Positions 137-29,368 of a DNA stretch of 31,759 nt are shown in pieces (position 1 is the first letter of the stretch; each line of letters starts with the position of its first letter). The position numbers and the translations under genes were made by a program. Under the pieces are notes generated by a model. That model made no database searches and was not told where the DNA came from. It saw only the letters and a program-made list of their open reading frames with translations. Source of the DNA: Chloroflexota bacterium (GTDB lineage: Bacteria > Chloroflexota > Ktedonobacteria > Ktedonobacterales > Ktedonobacteraceae); the NCBI GenBank assembly GCA_005882595.1, contig VBFM01000094.1, positions 1 to 31,759 of the forward strand, written 5' to 3'.

Positions 137-165
137 AGTGTAGCATAGCACCAGGGTGATCGCAA
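137..165 (-). promoter_or_regulatory. Putative sigma70 promoter for icd
   Basis: Minus strand TTGCGA (160-165), 17-bp spacer, TACACT (137-142) preceded by TGn (extended -10). Confidence 0.5.
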
Positions 166-244
166 GGGTAGGCCCTGGAAGTTGTTATCTTTTGAATAGC
201 CCTGATTTTCATACCTTTTTTCTCTGTACGTTTGTCTCAAAATC

Positions 245-253: not shown

Positions 254-265
254 TGCTGCAAATAA

Positions 266-323
266 ACTACTTATCCGACTGCCTGACACGCAGTGTAGCA
301 CGTAGTGCGTTGGCAGTCGGAAT
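266..323 (+). repeat. Hairpin element, family H, copy A
   Basis: ccgactgcc (275-283) / ggcagtcgg (312-320) 9-bp inverted repeat; the 46-bp core is 43/46 identical to 14040-14085. Confidence 0.85.
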
Positions 324-364
324 ACGGACCATTAGGCATTATTCAGTCTCGATAAGGTATATGC

Positions 365-2997: not shown

Positions 2998-3096
2998 GCC
3001 AGGGCGACCGCAAGGGTGCGCCCCTACAATATACGAATGCGTCTGCTGCCTGATTTGTCCGTATATTGTAGGGGCGTACCCTTGCGGTCGCCCTGG
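2998..3096. repeat. REPIN (inverted REP doublet)
   Basis: gggcgaccgcaagggtgcgcccctac-aatatacg (3002-3035) is inverted against cgtatatt-gtaggggcgtacccttgcggtcgccc (3060-3093) with one mismatch. Confidence 0.85.
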
Positions 3097-3230
3097 AAAA
3101 GGATGCTATACCGCTTGCTATCCATGACAGGCAAATGACCCTTGCGGTCGGATGCTATGCTCCGGCAGGGGCTGATCTGGCACGGCGTGATCTTAGGCGC
3201 GCCCTTGCGGTTCCCCTGGAAAGGGATGCT

Positions 3231-4358
3231 ATGCCTCGTTGGCTGTACTATCTACTTATACTGGCCGTCATTGCTCCCATCATCCAACTGGTGTGGGGAC
3301 AACAGCAAGAGATGGCCATTTTTATTTGTTCAGCTATCGCCCTGATTCCCCTGGCAGGACTAATCGGGCGTGCCACCGAAGACCTGGAATATTACGTTGG
3401 TCCCATTGCCGGTGGGCTGCTGAACGCCACCTTTGGCAATGCTCCCGAAATTATCATCGGCATCTTTGCCCTGCAACAGGGACTGATCTCAGTGGTCAAG
3501 GCCTCGATTACCGGTTCGATCATCAGCAACGCACTGCTTGTATTGGGCAGTTCGCTGGCGCTTGGAGGATGGCGCTGGGGCAAACAATACTTCAATGCGC
3601 GCGATGCCGGGCAATATTCGGCCATGATGGTGCTGGCGGTAGCTGGCCTGCTCATTCCCGCAACCGGTTCCCTGATCATCCGTGACTCTGGACGTGTGCA
3701 GTCGATCAGCATAGCGGTCTCGGTGATCCTGCTGCTGGTCTATGGCATGTACCTTGCCCTGCATGTCTTTCACGTGCGCGCTGAACGCCGCAGCCCTAAA
3801 CGTCACCAGGCTGCTCTTGCCGAGGAGCAGGGGGAAGTAGAGGTGGAAGCGGTGACCGGCGGTGTTGATCCCCATAGGCTGGATGAGAGGAATCCACCTA
3901 AACCCTGGCTGGCGGCTGTATTATTGCTGGTCGCGACCATCGGCACTGCCTTGAATAGCGAATTGTTAGTAGGCGCGATTGTGCCCGTCACCAGGCTGCT
4001 GGGCTGGTCTCCCATCTTCATTGGCCTGGTTATCATCCCTATTGTGGGCAATGCTGCCGAACATTCAAGCGCCGTATATATCGCGCTCAGGGATCGCATT
4101 GACCTCAGTATGGCCATTGCAGCCGGTTCATCGATTCAAGTCGCCACCTTCGTCGCGCCGCTCCTGGTGCTGGTGAGCCTGTTCTATGCCACGCCGCTCA
4201 ACCTGGTCTTTCAACCCCTGGAATTGGTTGTGTTAGGACTGGCGACCATCCTCTTCGCCCTCCTCAGCCTGGATGGAGAGACTACATGGTTGGCCGGAAT
4301 ACAACTCGTTGCGGTGTATATAATGGCGTGCGTGGTGTTTTTCTTCATTCCTGGATAA
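3231..4358 (+). CDS. Ca2+/H+ antiporter (CaCA family, Cax/ChaA-like)
   Basis: Alpha-repeat motifs GLLNATFGNAPE and PIVGNAAEH, GSIISNALLVLG, about 11 hydrophobic segments; start moved to ATG 3231 because the upstream frame is REP-derived. Confidence 0.92.
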   Translation: MPRWLYYLLILAVIAPIIQLVWGQQQEMAIFICSAIALIPLAGLIGRATEDLEYYVGPIAGGLLNATFGNAPEIIIGIFALQQGLISVVKASITGSIISNALLVLGSSLALGGWRWGKQYFNARDAGQYSAMMVLAVAGLLIPATGSLIIRDSGRVQSISIAVSVILLLVYGMYLALHVFHVRAERRSPKRHQAALAEEQGEVEVEAVTGGVDPHRLDERNPPKPWLAAVLLLVATIGTALNSELLVGAIVPVTRLLGWSPIFIGLVIIPIVGNAAEHSSAVYIALRDRIDLSMAIAAGSSIQVATFVAPLLVLVSLFYATPLNLVFQPLELVVLGLATILFALLSLDGETTWLAGIQLVAVYIMACVVFFFIPG

Positions 4359-8366: not shown

Positions 8367-10442
8367 TTATTCCCCCTGCCAGATTTGTACGGTTGTATCC
8401 TGTGAGCCAGAAACAACCAGCGTCCCTGGGATAGATATCCATGCTACCGCGTCTACCACTGCCCCGTGACCCTTGTAGCTGTAAGGGTTGCTACCGTCGG
8501 TCGCTCCCCACACCTGTACCGTCCCATCTTTACTTGCGGAGGCAATGCGCGTCCCGTCGAGTGACCAGGCCAGACCATAGATGGCGTCGGTATGTCCTCC
8601 ATAGGTATAGACGGGAGTGCCACCAGCTACATCAGGCTTCCATACTCGCACCGTTTTATCCATGCCGCCAGAAGCGATATACGTTCCATCCGGCGACCAT
8701 GCGACCGCGTACACCACGTCGGAATGGCGTGAAAACGTGATGGGGTTGCTGCCGTCAGCGGCGTTCCATACCTGCACCGTTTTATCGGCGCTTCCTGATG
8801 CAATGCGCATACTATCGGGTGACCAGGCTACCGCCCATACCACGTCCATATGACCTGGATAGCCGAAAGGGCTGCTGCCATCGGCTGCCGTCCATACCTG
8901 CACCGTTTTGTCCGCGCTGCCAGAGGCAATGCGTGTCCCAGCGCGCGACCACGCGACCGCGTTGACCGCGGCAGTATGGCTCATGTAGGTGAATGCATTG
9001 CTGGCGTCGGCGGTCTTCCAGACCCTGACGGTTTTATCGTTGCTGCCTGAGACCACGTATTGTTCATCTGGCGACCAGGATACGGTGGTAACTGCATCCG
9101 TATGACCCACATAAGCAACCGCGTGTACGCCGCCTGTCGCCGTATCCCACACCTGTACGGTGGTATCTTTGGAGGCAGAAGCGATGTATTGCCCATTCAG
9201 AGAACTTGCGACACTTAAGACAATATCGTGATGCCCACGATAGGTATGGAAGGTTGTACCTATCGGAATAGGGGTAGGAGTAATCGTCGGAATTATCGTG
9301 GGTGTAGGCGCTGACTTCTGGATAGTGCGGTATTTGCTAACAAGCCAGGTGGCCGTTCCGCCCGCCGCTCCCAGCGCGGCCAGTCCTGCCAGCACAACGG
9401 TCCGCCTCGAAATGGCCGCTTTGCGCTCTTTATAGCGGGGAATCACCGGAAGCGCGTTGACGGCTGGCTGCTTTGCCAGCATGGTTGGCGCGTAGGGATT
9501 ATTCTCCCCTGTGGGCGTCAAGAGGTTTGTGCCGGATGAGTTCAAATGCAGTGGTTGGGAATGCATAGCGGCTTCAAAAGCGTAGGCGAAGTCCAGCGCG
9601 GACGGGAAACGCTGCGCCGGATCTTTGGCCAGAGCGCGCATCACCACGGCTTCAAGCGCGGGAGAAAGTTGAGGAATGCGCGCGCAGAGCGATGGAGGGG
9701 GCATATTGACATGCTGCGCCGCCACTTCGCCAAGTGATCCCTTGTAAGGGCATTCACCGCTCAGCCACTCATAGACCACGATGGCAAGCGAGTATTGATC
9801 GCTTGCCATGACGGGTTTCCCCTGCAATTGCTCTGGAGCCATGTAGGTGATCGTGCCAACGATCTCGCGGTCCGATTGCGAGTGGGTGCTAATCACAACG
9901 GCAATGCCAAAATCACTCAACAGGATCATGCCTTGTTCATCAATCAGCATGTTTTCCGGCTTGATATCACGATGGATAAAGCGTCGATCGTGGGCATACT
10001 GGAGAGCGTCGGCGACTTGTTTGATATAGGGAAGGATGACTGTAGGAGGAAGGGCTAGCCCTTTTGGGTGACGCTGGCGCAGAGTGCCGTTAGGCGCGTA
10101 ATCCATAACCAGAAAAGGCGTCCCGTCCTTGACATCAAAATCGTGGATGCTCACAATATGTGGATGCCGCAGGCGCGCCACAATACGGGCTTCTTTACGA
10201 AACTCTTCCAGGTCGTTGCTGTCCAACTGCGCGTGTAAGACCTTGATAGCGGCCAGGGTATTGAGGTGGATATGCACGCCGAGATAGACCTCGGCGAAGC
10301 CGCCTTCAGCAATCAGTTGAAGCAGGCGATAATTTCCCAGTAGCCTGGACCCCCCCTCAGGCATGAAGAGATGACCTTTGGCAAGCGACCCCGATATGCG
10401 TATTGTTGGGAAGTCTGGAGGCTGGGAGGATGCCTGGTCCAT
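8367..10442 (-). CDS. Ser/Thr protein kinase with transmembrane helix and WD40 beta-propeller
   Basis: Hanks motifs GGFAEVY, AAIK, HRDIKPEN, DFG, YMAPEQ, SDQYSLA; hydrophobic helix after SRR; seven GH...W..D...SGS.DKTVQVW repeats. Confidence 0.95.
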   Translation of the reverse strand: MDQASSQPPDFPTIRISGSLAKGHLFMPEGGSRLLGNYRLLQLIAEGGFAEVYLGVHIHLNTLAAIKVLHAQLDSNDLEEFRKEARIVARLRHPHIVSIHDFDVKDGTPFLVMDYAPNGTLRQRHPKGLALPPTVILPYIKQVADALQYAHDRRFIHRDIKPENMLIDEQGMILLSDFGIAVVISTHSQSDREIVGTITYMAPEQLQGKPVMASDQYSLAIVVYEWLSGECPYKGSLGEVAAQHVNMPPPSLCARIPQLSPALEAVVMRALAKDPAQRFPSALDFAYAFEAAMHSQPLHLNSSGTNLLTPTGENNPYAPTMLAKQPAVNALPVIPRYKERKAAISRRTVVLAGLAALGAAGGTATWLVSKYRTIQKSAPTPTIIPTITPTPIPIGTTFHTYRGHHDIVLSVASSLNGQYIASASKDTTVQVWDTATGGVHAVAYVGHTDAVTTVSWSPDEQYVVSGSNDKTVRVWKTADASNAFTYMSHTAAVNAVAWSRAGTRIASGSADKTVQVWTAADGSSPFGYPGHMDVVWAVAWSPDSMRIASGSADKTVQVWNAADGSNPITFSRHSDVVYAVAWSPDGTYIASGGMDKTVRVWKPDVAGGTPVYTYGGHTDAIYGLAWSLDGTRIASASKDGTVQVWGATDGSNPYSYKGHGAVVDAVAWISIPGTLVVSGSQDTTVQIWQGE

Positions 10443-13898: not shown

Positions 13899-13960
13899 TT
13901 CGACCGGATGACCCGAGGCGCTGTCACGTAGTGCTGACGCGCAGTGTCGTTTCCGATCAG

Positions 13961-14094
13961 AATACTACCTTGCCGACTGCCTAAGCCGCAGGCTAGCACG
14001 CAGTGCGTTGGCAGTCGGAAGAAGAGGAATACTACCTTGCCGACTGCCTGACACGCAGTGTAGAACACAGTGCGTTGGCAGTCGGAAGAAGAGG
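13961..14094 (+). repeat. Hairpin element family H, two tandem 67-bp copies (B1 13961-14027, B2 14028-14094)
   Basis: Units are 60/67 identical; each carries a ccgactgcc/ggcagtcgg stem. Confidence 0.9.
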
Positions 14095-14116
14095 AAAAAG
14101 AGACCAGGAGGACAGC

Positions 14117-15817
14117 ATGTCCAAATTCATTTTTGTTACGGGTGGTGTGGCATCTTCGGTAGGAAAGGGTATCACGGTCGCCTCTCTGGGCCGCTTGCTC
14201 AAGAATCGCGGAGTCTCGGTCGCCCTTATGAAGTTAGACCCTTACATCAATGTTGATCCAGGTACGATGTCGCCTTATCAGCATGGTGAGGTCTTTGTCA
14301 CCGATGATGGAGCGGAAACCGATCTTGATCTTGGCCACTACGAGCGTTTTACCGACGAGCCAGCATACCAGGCAAATAATGTAACAACGGGACAGGTCTA
14401 CGCTGCCGTTATTGGCAAGGAGCGCCGTGGCGAATATCTGGGAGGCACCATCCAGGTGATCCCCCATATCACCAATGAGATCAAGGAGCGCATCCATAAC
14501 GTTGCGCGTCAATCCGACGCGGATGTCGTGATTGTCGAAGTAGGCGGCACTGTCGGCGATATCGAGGGCGAGCCGTTTCTGGAGGCTATTCGCCAGATGC
14601 GTAAAGATGTAGGGCGTCGAGATGTACTGTATATGCACGTCACTCTATTGCCCTATCTGATGGCAACCAAAGAACTGAAAACCAAGCCAACCCAGCACAT
14701 TCAACCCGATGTGATCCTATGCCGTTCTGACTATCCCTTGAGCGACGACTTGCGCGAGAAAATTGCGCTCTTCTGCAATATCGAAGAACGCGCCGTTGTT
14801 CCCTTGCTCACTACCGAAACGATCTATGAGGTTCCACTCATCCTGGAAGAGGCGGGTCTGGGTGAATACCTTGTGCAGGAACTCAGTTTGCCCAAACACG
14901 AGCCTCAGATGCAGGAATGGCGCGAACTGGTTGCCAGGATCAAGCATCCTCGCCCGGAGCTGGTTATCGGGCTGATAGGCAAATACGTCGAACTGCATGA
15001 TGCATACCTCTCCGTGGCGGAGAGCTTGCGCCATGCCGGTTGGCATCATGGTGTCGATGTGCGTATCAAATGGATTAACTCCGAGGCCCTGGAAAAGATG
15101 GGCGAGGGCTATACGGAATTGCTGGAGGATGTTGCAGGCATTGTCGTACCCGGTGGTTTCGGTCATCGTGGTATCGAGGGCAAGATTAAAGCCGCCAACT
15201 TCGCTCGCCGCACGGGTACGCCCTATCTCGGACTCTGTCTGGGCCTGCAGGTCGCGGTGATCGAGTTTGCCCGCAATGTGCTGGGATTGACCGGTGCAAA
15301 TAGCACCGAATTTGATCCTCAGACTCCCTATCCCGTCATCGATTTAATGCCTACCCAGCGGCAAGTGGCGGATAAAGGTGGTACAATGCGTCTGGGGAAC
15401 TGGGTGTGTTGCCTGACCCCTGGCACTCGGGCCTATGAAGCCTACGGTGAGGCCATCGTGTTTGAGCGCCACCGTCATCGTTATGAATTCAACAACGAAT
15501 ATCGTAAACGTATGGAGGCGCATGGTGTGAAGGTTAGCGGTCGCTCGGCTGATAATAGCCTGGTGGAGATCATCGAACTGGCGCATCATCCCTGGTTCGT
15601 CGCTTCGCAATTCCATCCGGAGTTTAAGAGCCGTCCTACTCGTCCTCATCCGCTCTTCCGAGATTTTGTGGGCGCGTGCCTGCAGGGGGAAGAAGAGAAA
15701 CAGCGCGCAGCGTACGAGGCATTTGAACGCCAGGTAGTAGGAGCTTCGGCGGAGCTTGCTGAACATGCTTCCATGCACCATACATCCGATATGCCGGATT
15801 CTCGCATCGAGAAGTAG
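14117..15817 (+). CDS. pyrG: CTP synthase, with an apparent in-frame ~9-codon deletion after KTKPTQH
   Basis: [45 protein letters not shown] nucleophile, RHRHRYE, QFHPEF; ATG 14117 has a GGAGG RBS. Confidence 0.97.
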
Positions 15818-19739: not shown

Positions 19740-19790
19740 CCTCTTGTTATTCATGCTTCTGCAAGACGGCAAGTTCGTATCTCAAGCAAC

Positions 19791-19874
19791 AGGGCGACCG
19801 CAAGGGTGCGCCCGTACAATACACGGTTGGAATCGTGATCGTGTATTGTACGGGCGCACCCTTGCGGTCGCCCT
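19791..19874. repeat. REPIN with perfect 35-bp inverted arms
   Basis: agggcgaccgcaagggtgcgcccgtacaatacacg (19791-19825) is the exact reverse complement of 19840-19874; same REP family as 2998-3096 with a GTAC variant. Confidence 0.9.
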
Positions 19875-20016
19875 GGCTTAAATCATCGAGCGAAATGGCC
19901 CTGGCTGAGATCATAGAGCGAAGTCGCCCTGGCTTAAATCATCGAGCGAAGTGGTGTTGCTGTCGAATGCAATCAATCGCCCCTTGCGGTCGCCCTGGCT
20001 TAAATCATCGAGCGAA
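19870..20016. repeat. Four direct copies of a 25-bp unit (greA 3' end + REP foot)
   Basis: gccctggcttaaatcatcgagcgaa at 19870, 19926 and 19992 (exact) and 19898 (3 mismatches). Confidence 0.85.
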
Positions 20017-20530
20017 TTGAGCGAATGGTGTAGTTAGTAACACCACCAGGCGTGGAGACCGTTACATGGTCGCCTTCCTGGTGTCCCATCAACGCTTTGC
20101 CAACCGGGGATTGATCTGAAATCAAGCCTGCTTTAGGATCGGCTTCAAAGGTCTCGACTATTTTGAAGGTGCGTGACGCGCCTGTATCGCTCTGCACCTC
20201 AACTTGCATGCCGATGCGCACCGCAGGCGGCCCTGTGAAATCATCATGCATATCGCCGGTCATAATCTCGGCTACAGCAAGCAAGCGCTCCAGTTGAAGA
20301 ATCTCACCCTCTACCTTCGCCTGTTCATTTTTAGCATCTTCGTAGGCGCTGCTTTCGCTGATGTCACCCGCTTCTTTCGCTTCATGGATATAATCAGCAA
20401 TCTCTTTGCGTTTTATTGTACGTAAGTAGTCCAGGCGTTCTTGCTTTTTCGCAAAGCCCTCGGGAGTTAAACGATAGACCTTTTGCTCTGACTTCGCCTG
20501 GGTGGTATCACTCTGTCCACCAATATTCAT
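20000..20530 (-). CDS. greA: Transcription elongation factor GreA/GreB family
   Basis: LTPEG...AGDISESSAYEDAK, ISDQSPVGKALMG, VTVSTPGG; ATG 20530 has a GGAG RBS. Confidence 0.9.
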   Translation of the reverse strand: MNIGGQSDTTQAKSEQKVYRLTPEGFAKKQERLDYLRTIKRKEIADYIHEAKEAGDISESSAYEDAKNEQAKVEGEILQLERLLAVAEIMTGDMHDDFTGPPAVRIGMQVEVQSDTGASRTFKIVETFEADPKAGLISDQSPVGKALMGHQEGDHVTVSTPGGVTNYTIRSIRSMI

Positions 20531-22079: not shown

Positions 22080-22191
22080 CCTTGCGTCCTGCCTGAGCGA
22101 AGCGCACACCTTGCATCTTGCCTGAGCGTAGCTAGCACGCAGTGCGTTGGCAAGATGCCTTACAAGAAGCACGCAGTGCGTTGGCAGGATG
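22080..22191 (+). repeat. Hairpin element family H, two nested copies
   Basis: Inner stem gcatcttgcc (22113-22122) / ggcaagatgc (22149-22158); outer stem gtcctgcc / ggcaggat; both end in agcacgcagtgcgttggca. Confidence 0.85.
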
Positions 22192-22248
22192 TCTTTCAAG
22201 GTGCCGACATCCCGCGTAACGAGGAATGCAAAAGTTCAAGGAAGTAAT

Positions 22249-23121
22249 ATGCGAATTATACATGACCTGGATGAAATGACCGAAACGGCGCGAGGCTGGC
22301 TTTCTGGTGGAATTATTGGATTCATCCCGACGGTTGGCTATCTTCATGCCGGTCATGCATCATTGATACAGGCGGCGCGCCAGGAATGTGAATACAGCAT
22401 CGTCAGTATTTTTGTGAACCCGCTCGAGTTCGATCAAGACGAGGCCCCTATTCTCTATCCAAATAATTTGACCGGTGATATACAGTTTCTGGATAAAGAA
22501 CAGGTGGATGTGGTGTTTATTCCTCGTTTCGAAGAGATGTACCCGCCAGATTTTTCTACCTATGTGGTGGTCTTTGGCCCGGTAGCCGAACGACTGGAAG
22601 CAGCATTCCGCCCTGAACATGTGCGTGGCTATGCTACCAACATCGTCAAATTATTGCAACTTGTGCGGCCCGATATGGCCTATTTTGGGCAAAACAATGC
22701 CCAGCATGTGGCATTGATCCGTCGGCTCGTGCGTGATTTGAGTATAGATGTGAAGTTACAGGTGTTGCCGACCGTGCGCGATACGGATGGGCTTGCGCTA
22801 AGTATTCGCAATCAGGCCCTCAGTCCTGAAGAGCGGCAAGCAGCACCCCTACTGTATCAAGCGCTGCTGGCAGGGAAAGCGCTGATCGAACAAGGTGAGC
22901 GCAACCTGGCCCTCATTGAAAAAACGATGGTTGACGTAATAACGGCCTCACCTTTCATCAAGTTGGACTACGCCACTGCTTGTGACCCTCAAAGCTTCGA
23001 ACAGCCAGGTGACATGCTGCCAGAAACGCTTACTGATTTGCTGCTGGTAGTTGCGGCACACTTCGGTACTACGCGCCTCAATGACAATCTGCTCCTACGT
23101 GATGGTCACTGGCTAATCTGA
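22249..23121 (+). CDS. panC: Pantoate--beta-alanine ligase (PanC)-like protein with divergent active site
   Basis: GFIPTVGYLHAGHASL (HxGH), SIFVNP, RPDMAYFG, VRDTDGLALSIRN, RLNDN; full length. Confidence 0.8.
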   Translation: MRIIHDLDEMTETARGWLSGGIIGFIPTVGYLHAGHASLIQAARQECEYSIVSIFVNPLEFDQDEAPILYPNNLTGDIQFLDKEQVDVVFIPRFEEMYPPDFSTYVVVFGPVAERLEAAFRPEHVRGYATNIVKLLQLVRPDMAYFGQNNAQHVALIRRLVRDLSIDVKLQVLPTVRDTDGLALSIRNQALSPEERQAAPLLYQALLAGKALIEQGERNLALIEKTMVDVITASPFIKLDYATACDPQSFEQPGDMLPETLTDLLLVVAAHFGTTRLNDNLLLRDGHWLI

Positions 23122-29329: not shown

Positions 29330-29368
29330 AAGGTGAAAGGGCGACCGCCAGAGTCGCTCTTTCACCTT
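29330..29368 (-). terminator. Probable Rho-independent terminator of the NYN gene
   Basis: 16-bp stem aaggtgaaagggcgac / gtcgctctttcacctt (one position non-Watson-Crick), followed on the minus strand by TTCTATTT. Confidence 0.6.

Follow-up and report, generated by a model that had tools for sequence, protein, structure and literature searches.

A previously undescribed family of small repeats, present in about 100 copies in one genome of the Ktedonobacteraceae (Chloroflexota), is selfish or at least interspersed DNA, and it is defined by shape more than by sequence. Five of its copies lie in the window, by which we mean the whole stretch of 31,759 nt that was analysed (contig C85 of the assembly G000; 4.43 Mb, 520 contigs, 74% complete, 54% G+C). 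The original prediction, made from this stretch, had described a covarying hairpin element upstream of housekeeping genes, and had left two readings side by side: a cis-regulatory leader RNA, or a self-propagating, non-autonomous element of about 65 nt. The latter is supported by the roughly 100 dispersed copies, a patchy copy number, nesting and tandem arrangement, and lineage-specific insertions in genes. With a probability of roughly 0.6, we consider the element to be a lineage-restricted selfish or interspersed small non-coding repeat, which multiplied within the Ktedonobacteraceae and spreads as a folded single strand of DNA.

Alignment of 31 copies from G000, together with single-strand folding, revealed a three-way junction of 60-70 nt. 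An imperfect outer stem (CCTTG...CAAGG or a variant) is followed by a 9-bp main stem and then by a junction with two mini-hairpins, the first of the form A-N(2-4)-C GNA G-N'-T and the second of the form G-N(2-3)-C GNA G-N'-C. The stretch given as "11-13 nt" in the originally proposed consensus corresponds to the first mini-hairpin (A-N2-4-C GNA G-N'-T), and GCACGCAGTGC is the second. The junction bases are near-invariant (C/TG/A...T/A/G...C/GTT/G, that is CTGA, TAG and CGTT), and the sequence of the main stem varies with compensation. In the 31 copies, 97% of the paired cells are complementary and changes on both sides were seen in 11 of the 16 pairs; with slid partner structures, pairing falls to 23-44%. 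None of 500 shuffles reached the observed values of pairing and covariation, a significance that is overstated because the rows are paralogous copies and not independent. An alignment of 33 copies from other genomes (A2, one row of which comes from the unpublished genome G020) had an equal outcome, A2 having been fitted to the model beforehand. The covariation is real, and taken alone it is no proof of selection on an RNA. The N4/N4' blocks of the window copies were correctly described as varying in pairs: CCGACTGCC/GGCAGTCGG, CATCTTGCC/GGCAAGATG and CGTCCTGCC/GGCAGGATG are true pairings, the last with one G.T. The interior hairpin loops are GNA triloops in 113 of 155 cases and are closed by a C:G pair in 135 of 155. 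d(GNA) triloops closed by C:G are known as exceptionally stable DNA mini-hairpins, the most stable of their type (PMC3201870). Complementarity is perfect for mini-hairpin 1 in 40, and for mini-hairpin 2 in 39, of the 41 strictly parsed copies. An internal (G/C)TAG precedes mini-hairpin 2, and in half of the cases it reads CTAG.

The stem modules are assorted combinatorially. The main stem CGACTGCC is found with four different mini-hairpin 2 stems, and the mini-hairpin 2 stem GCAC is combined with at least six main stems. A 25-nt hairpin, CACCCTCTCCGGGGGAGAGGTAATC, takes the place of the mini-hairpin 2 triloop in seven copies, among which six different main stems are represented, and it was not found elsewhere in G000. 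The module assortment and the distribution of CACCCTCTCCGGGGGAGAGGTAATC therefore indicate frequent gene conversion or recombination among copies, or else a process that rewrites stems. The idea of a mobile core entering pre-existing host hairpins, which would account for the variability of the main stems, was abandoned, only one "empty" main-stem hairpin having been found (C274:2474). Two known folded elements were also considered and rejected on motif inspection: the core of a hammerhead ribozyme, CUGANGA...GAAA, is not present, in agreement with Rfam, and neither are R''/R' boxes pairing with each other as in an integron attC site.

An 18-mer from the conserved core occurs exactly 13 times in the genome and 55 times if up to three mismatches are allowed, and a related 14-mer occurs 15 times compared to an expectation of 0.03. 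A covariance model of the element (R1) recovered at least 95 copies in G000 among the best 150 of 1238 candidates scored. An independent scan for the junction plus stems added about 11 copies with further main stems; on reversed sequence, the same scan returned 18 hits, equal to the number of its non-family hits. A few copies have identical flanks on separate contigs, so that redundancy in the assembly may have raised the count a little.

Beyond G000, R1-positive genomes (MAGs) were found in 14 of 24 other genera of the Ktedonobacteraceae (13 of 23 if G020 is left out), with 1 to at least 113 copies per genome. R1 detected no copy in the remaining 10 of the 24 genera, nor in 16 genomes of three sister families. 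In a scan of 185,579 GTDB species genomes with the exact pattern, the matches fell in Ktedonobacteraceae or in MAGs labelled "uncultured Chloroflexia", apart from two chance-level hits in the candidate phyla radiation, one of which has no R1 match while the other is a 30-nt partial match without stems. Rfam gave no match at gathering score in the window and none at E<=10 on the two loci scanned at that level, in line with the original impression that this is not a named family. A full-text search of the literature found no description of such a repeat in Ktedonobacteria.

Re-inspection of the sequence placed all five window copies where they had been predicted, with one of them (E) inserted into another (D), and added a possible fragment of a sixth. 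Pfam likewise confirmed the downstream genes as a 3'-5' exonuclease (RNase D-like), CTP synthase and pantoate ligase (Pantoate_ligase). The composite of D and E recurs at G000:C237:1530-1660 with about 90% identity, judged by eye, between unrelated flanks. Positions and properties are collected in Table 1.

Table 1. Copies of the element in the window, and RAYT genes of the same genome. Mini-hairpins (mh) are written as stem-loop-stem.
Feature	Position	Strand	Stems and tail	R1 match; DNA fold	Context
Copy A	263..331	+	main stem CCGACTGCC/GGCAGTCGG; mh 1 ACAC-GCA-GTGT; mh 2 GCAC-GTA-GTGC; tail type GGAATACGGACC	76.2 bits, E 1.2e-18; three-way junction, -15.7 kcal/mol, z -4.1	34 nt upstream of the first possible start (365) of the 3'-5' exonuclease ORF; has CTTATCCGACTGCC where the originally proposed consensus reads CCTTGC-N4-TGCC
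Possible decayed fragment of a further copy (CGTAGTGCTGACGCGCAGTGTCGTTTCC)	13927..13954	+	CTGA junction, mh-1-like stretch and CGTT kept; main stem and mh 2 missing	no detection by R1	seen by sequence inspection only; low confidence
Copy B	13961..14029	+	main stem CCGACTGCC/GGCAGTCGG; mh 1 AGCC-GCA-GGCT; mh 2 GCAC-GCA-GTGC; tail GGAAGAAGAGGAA	78.5 bits, E 2.3e-19; -16.2 kcal/mol, z -3.2	first unit of a head-to-tail tandem with copy C, period 67 nt (repeat family D2)
Copy C	14030..14096	+	arms and tail identical to copy B; mh 1 differs from B with compensation (ACAC-GCA-GTGT); mh 2 damaged (GAAC-ACA-GTGC)	65.4 bits	second tandem unit; 20 nt upstream of the pyrG ATG at 14117
Copy D (outer), 5' half	22080..22108	+	CCTTGCGTCCTGCC-TGA-GCGAAGC-GCACA		
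Copy E (inner)	22109..22166	+	main stem CATCTTGCC/GGCAAGATG	67.2 bits at 22102-22168	between mh 1 and mh 2 of copy D, same sense
Copy D (outer), 3' half	22167..22208	+	AA-GCACGCAGTGC-GT-TGGCAGGATG-TCTTTCAAGGTGCCGAC		repeat pair D6; end of copy D 40 nt upstream of the panC ATG at 22249
RAYT gene of G000	C434:694..1266	-			
RAYT gene of G000	locus L002 (C152)				

Copies of the element also reside inside protein genes. Among 19 loci in long ORFs, nine host genes were checked and found to be real, with Pfam domains flanking or spanning the copy: UvrA, RelA/SpoT, a glycogen debranching enzyme, cytochrome bd subunit I, an NRPS C-A module, an adenylate cyclase-ATPase-TPR protein, an ABC transporter, a methyltransferase and an A2M-like protein. 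Intragenic copies occur in both senses and are read in stop-free frames, the antisense ones encoding peptides such as PxDSQPANxL...RQ...RN. In UvrA the insert lies within a variable linker, which is shorter and unrelated in 15 relatives. In the glycogen debranching enzyme it consists of the element plus an enclosing REP (GTAG...CTAC) and adds about 35 codons at a domain boundary; in the three closest relatives (G009, G002 and G001), 3-7 codons are found there. Members of this family can thus reside in frame within the variable linkers of real proteins. REPs within genes, repair genes included, have already been reported (PMC3733652).

The way in which copies are inserted into one another is strand-specific. 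In all 10 nested cases the inner copy has the same sense as the flanking halves of the outer copy, with none in the opposite sense, and the inner copy enters either between the two mini-hairpins, at their one-base linker, or in the loop of mini-hairpin 2; at one locus the nesting reaches three levels. Tandem arrays are always co-oriented, their units may differ by compensated changes, as copies B and C do, and their last unit is incomplete, comprising the first 9-11 nt of the element. The 5' leader of the element differs by subfamily. The flanks that were compared contain no regular or consistent target-site duplication, and no conserved target tetranucleotide could be defined. A duplication of TA or TACT was considered as a general rule and rejected, as these letters flank both sides of some copies and many copies lack them; the direct repeats seen at copies belong to the element's own 5' end.

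A second class of targets is formed by the hairpins of GTAG REPs, of which G000 has several classes (about 1000 GTAGGGRY sites compared to 540 expected). REPs of the type GTAGGGRCGCGAT...ATCGCGYCC hold 15 copies in their loops, 12 of them on the GTAG strand and 3 on the opposite one, far more than such a small target would be expected to receive. The original prediction that the element lacks the GTAG foot of co-occurring REPs is correct for the window copies and, across the genome, for 82 of 95 copies. It does not extend to the 13 that have GTAGGG within 50 nt upstream, 12 of them within the loop of a GTAG REP; 3 further copies lie in REPs with the GTAG on the opposite strand. In all 13 the GTAGGG belongs to the enclosing or adjacent GTAG REP.

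The two strands of the element also differ in their mismatches. Read on the sense strand, main-stem mismatches are G.T in 21 cases and A.C in 5, and where the host mRNA corresponds to the other strand the counts are 12 and 2. This asymmetry, which does not depend on host transcription, points to the sense strand as the one that is folded or exposed. Around 86 loci, neither GC skew nor AT skew nor gene-strand bias bears any relation to the orientation of the element, a result that is uninformative on a single-strand model because the assembly is too fragmented to define replichores.

Several known systems resemble the element in part. Like the repeats of the REP/REPIN-RAYT system, it is a small, high-copy, mostly extragenic palindromic repeat that evolves within a lineage, and compensatory stem evolution, tandem or clustered arrangement and occasional intragenic copies are described for REPs as well (PMC3733652, PMC3116915). 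RAYT genes and hundreds of GTAG REPs coexist with the element, and about 15 copies sit inside GTAG REP hairpins. A REP, however, is one hairpin of 20-40 nt with a GTAG or CGTC foot, whereas the element has 60-70 nt, a three-way junction, two GNA mini-hairpins and, in most copies, no foot of its own. In a REPtron the RAYT is flanked by its own repeat, which the element is not, and the element is not arranged as the inverted REP doublet that makes up a REPIN. The Rickettsia palindromic elements (RPEs) are also palindromic and lie both between genes and in frame inside functional genes, adding a peptide (summarised in PMC3733652 and PMC2229807). They belong to an unrelated phylum, are longer, and differ in sequence and fold, the comparison being one of descriptions; nesting in each other's loops, as seen here, is not described for RPEs. 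The element thus behaves like REPs and RPEs yet falls outside the REPs on three counts: the GTAG foot is missing, the fold is more than one short hairpin, and the RAYT genes are flanked by a different repeat.

Correia/NEMIS, RUP, ERIC and pneumococcal BOX elements share with it a non-autonomous nature, stable stem-loops and proximity to genes. Such bacterial MITEs and modular repeats are sometimes co-transcribed, and BOX is modular in a way that recalls the shuffled stems of the element (PMC3049150, PMC10969869). The element differs from them in that no parent IS was found in a search of G000 for the IS630 type, target duplication is not regular and nesting is strand-specific. Its strand asymmetry and same-sense nesting fit the behaviour of IS200/IS605 ends and PATEs, which are one-strand hairpins read by a Y1 HUH transposase and inserted into single-stranded DNA without duplication (PMC6006769). 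Here the differences are that the sequences examined beside TnpA and RAYT genes gave no element match, and that the element has no definable target tetranucleotide.

Y1 HUH transposases are encoded in these genomes. G000 has two RAYT genes above the NCBIfam cut-off (NF047646; 87.0 and 85.6 bits compared to 80), both flanked by long inverted GTAGGGGCG(R)GGGCGG... REPs that are distinct from the element, and a weaker third RAYT-like locus. No R1 copy adjoins the RAYT gene at 10 RAYT loci in 8 genomes, the nearest being one copy about 1 kb away in G013. With the filters of R1 switched off, nothing better than E 1.6 was obtained at the third RAYT-like locus of G000 or at three IS200-type TnpA loci (in G019 and G022). 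A RAYT or an IS200-type TnpA is present in each of the nine genomes that have 12 or more copies, the RAYT match of G020 being weak (40.7 bits compared to the cut-off of 80), and two element-rich genomes have an IS200-type TnpA and not a RAYT. Element-free genomes with RAYT exist (e.g. G009, G003 and G007), and across 24 genera RAYT presence is weakly associated with element presence. Given the single-strand signature and the analogy with REP-RAYT and IS200/IS605 (PMC6006769), Y1 HUH transposases of the RAYT type are possibly the movers of the element.

A mode of spread can be proposed along these lines. The unit that matters would be the folded sense strand of the DNA, and a copy would be excised or copied as single-stranded DNA. 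It would then enter single-stranded DNA wherever other hairpins expose loops or linkers, as well as permissive spacers. Both steps would be carried out by a structure-specific enzyme acting in trans, for which the Y1 HUH transposases of these genomes are the most plausible candidates, and gene conversion between copies would shuffle the stem modules. A bolder version of this proposal, which we put forward tentatively and regard as doubtful, is that the element represents a new, structure-defined type of mobile DNA, in which a three-way-junction module of single-stranded DNA, topped by two C-GNA-G mini-hairpins, integrates strand-specifically into hairpin loops and linkers through an enzyme outside the canonical REP-RAYT and IS200 pairing. 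Its targets would be its own relatives, GTAG REPs and other palindromes. If so, "Russian-doll" repeats of several levels would be built up as such modules integrate, proteins would gain peptide segments, and stems would be re-assorted continually.

What speaks for a cis-regulatory leader RNA, a hairpin in the 5' UTR of housekeeping genes that controls transcription or translation, comes mainly from the window. All five copies there are, as originally noted, in the sense orientation on the + strand upstream of + strand genes, the distance being 20-40 nt; to this can be added the covarying structure and the preference for G.T pairs on the sense strand. The uniform orientation does not hold across the genome. 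When 87 loci were classed against a gene set of longest ORFs covering 89% of the genome, 19 lay inside ORFs of at least 120 aa, 17 in tandem spacers in sense and 21 in antisense, 16 in divergent spacers, 7 in convergent spacers and 7 at contig edges. Loci pointing at a gene start, and in this respect leader-like, numbered 33 compared to 28 others, and the slight excess of divergent spacers (16 of 61 compared to a background of 18%) is non-significant. Neighbouring loci on the same contig agree in orientation in 14 cases and differ in 6 (p 0.12), and the one-orientation pattern of the window is no genome-wide rule because this agreement is non-significant. Random orientation relative to genes is what the original prediction had itself named as evidence against a leader RNA. 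Copies also lie within genes in both senses, in convergent spacers, in other repeats and in REP loops, and the G.T bias persists where the host mRNA is the opposite strand. The pyrG spacer lacks the element in 12 of 15 relatives within the family. In the closest relative, G009, the spacer is 16 nt long and without element; with the repeats, this MBL-fold/pyrG spacer grows from 16 to 218 nt. Where it is occupied elsewhere, it holds unrelated copies, one of a different subfamily with a GTAG REP nested in mini-hairpin 2 (G013) and one in antisense within another palindrome (G011). An exact-protein record of the CTP synthase, sought for sister strains with an empty site, was not found. The promoter predicted upstream of copy A was not borne out, a consensus scan having detected no sigma-70-like promoter there or upstream of B/C; no T tract of the terminator type was seen, and Rfam has no match. 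The proposed link to the leaders of housekeeping genes also falls away with the dispersal of the copies over the genome, which shows no such specificity. The leader reading is therefore refuted on the computational tests named with the original prediction, and very improbable; the copies that precede the RNase D-like gene, pyrG and panC in the window are best read as insertions into tolerated spacers, not as regulation. The element may have some role as an RNA.

Three other explanations accept a dispersed repeat and account for it differently. A classical MITE, that is a deletion derivative of a DDE-type IS which is cut and pasted in double-stranded form and duplicates a short target such as TA, would match in size, copy number and in-frame insertions (reviewed in PMC10969869). 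The palindromic element has, by its nature, terminal inverted repeats, and many copies of two subfamilies are preceded by TA (TACTA/TACTT), with TA or TACT following some. The 3' flank, however, is not consistently TA, the last units of arrays are without it, and the 5' leader depends on the subfamily. No longer element with the same ends was seen, and G000, at 74% completeness, yielded no IS630-type DDE_3 transposase, the only DDE type sought. Same-sense nesting in 10 of 10 cases and strand-asymmetric mismatches would not be expected from cut-and-paste of double-stranded DNA, and we judge this explanation unlikely. A comparably low likelihood attaches to a structural element domesticated by the host, for example one that is bound by a nucleoid or topology protein, or a hairpin that stabilises mRNA or takes part in its processing, with transposition ancient or incidental. 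Across genera the stems vary and the shape and junction nucleotides are retained, one pyrG spacer is occupied in three genera, and roles of this kind have been assigned to REPs (REP/BIME; PMC3733652). Against this stand a copy number that ranges from 0 to more than 100, with no detectable copy in 10 of 24 genera, the presence of copies in protein linkers and in each other, which does not suggest a positional function, and the missing terminator-like T tract. It is less probable still that the family arose with no dedicated mobility, solely by slippage, template switching in quasi-palindromes and ectopic recombination among hairpins. Tandem arrays with partial end units, combinatorial modules, nesting that is always same-sense and the lack of a transposase linked to the element are all in keeping with such a process, and template switching in quasi-palindromes could, without any transposase, yield compensatory changes and same-sense nesting. 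Yet some 96 dispersed loci, including the interiors of unrelated genes, go beyond slippage, which also leaves unexplained how copies entered REP loops and the pyrG spacer independently and in either orientation. A selfish or interspersed repeat spreading as a folded single strand remains the reading we prefer.

The family is distinctive in combining a junction of twin GNA mini-hairpins, conservation of shape only, same-sense nesting in loops and in-frame insertions in genes. If our reading is true, a repeat population conserved in shape and free in sequence would be a clean data set on what a hairpin-recognising enzyme reads, and such an enzyme would read the junction bases and the GNA triloops, not the stems. 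The findings also bear on how single-stranded DNA elements choose their targets, since the loops of other hairpins are apparently preferred and nesting goes in one sense. In practical terms, repeats of this kind break MAG assemblies, inflate intergenic regions and can pass for riboswitch-like leaders. Selfish DNA within genes, known from Rickettsia and some REPs (PMC3733652), extends with this family to a free-living, large-genome lineage of the Chloroflexota, where the host proteins include repair and stringent-response proteins.

The GTAG-tagged REPs, with the sequence GTAGGGGCG[TC]ACCCTTGCGGTCGCCCTG, occur in the window as inverted pairs, an arrangement that is REPIN-like. Across the whole genome, about 1000 GTAGGGRY sites were observed against about 540 expected, and the GTAG REPs fall into several classes of 20-170 copies each. 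Inverted long REPs were also found on both sides of each of two genes for the REP-associated Y1 HUH transposase (RAYT). The direct repeats with a 28-nt period immediately adjoin a GTAG REP. Elsewhere in the window, the units of the 126-nt tandem repeat, hosted by a 691-aa ORF, share 71-72% identity.

In the same genome, a 25-nt hairpin module (CACCCTCTCCGGGGGAGAGGTAATC) was confined to mini-hairpin 2 of the 60-70-nt hairpin element family, and it occurs in seven element copies, among which six different main stems are represented. Only one clear "empty" main-stem hairpin was found in this genome; there, the arms of the CGTCCTGCC subfamily are separated by a 9-nt loop and the three-way junction core is absent. 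This hairpin is a precursor or else arose by deletion. Some element copies were identical or nearly identical on separate contigs, namely those at C452:3388 and C336:65, whose flanks are identical as well, and those at C9:3728 and C328:30216. These duplicates suggest that the MAG is to some extent redundant or heterogeneous in strain content, and therefore the copy counts of the family may be slightly inflated.

Coordinates of repeats and related features (G000, genome of the window; other G numbers, relatives of the same family; C, contigs of G000; L, extracted loci)
Feature	Location	Remarks
Inverted GTAG REP pair	window 3000-3035 / 3060-3096	
Inverted GTAG REP pair	window 19790-19825 / 19840-19876	
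Further GTAG REP sites	window 153-169, 3196-3235, 29338-29354	
Direct repeats	window 19859-20019	28-nt period, 3-4 units (GCCCTGGCTTAAATCATCGAGCGAA...)
Tandem repeat	window 8639-9050	126-nt unit (42 codons), 3 units; within ORF 8367-10442 (-)
Element copies with 25-nt module	G000 C47:2392, C172:3389, C290:6072, C336:3861, C394:2400, C445:191, C475:4317	
"Empty" main-stem hairpin	G000 C274:2474	(-)
Copy in pyrG spacer, G013	L102:3145-3232	GTAG REP nested in mini-hairpin 2
Copy in pyrG spacer, G011	L109:658-731	antisense; enclosed by another palindrome
UvrA matches with in-frame stop	L076-L080	G005, G006, G011, G012, G015

In five relatives, each six-frame match to UvrA contains one in-frame stop (TAG or TGA), which may reflect inserted sequence, a frameshift or the edge of the alignment.

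Copies of the hairpin family were also present at the orthologous position, the spacer that separates pyrG from the MBL-fold gene, in G013 and G011, which represent two other genera. The copies in these two genomes are unrelated members of the family. The MBL-fold/pyrG spacer is an insertion site that has been used repeatedly.
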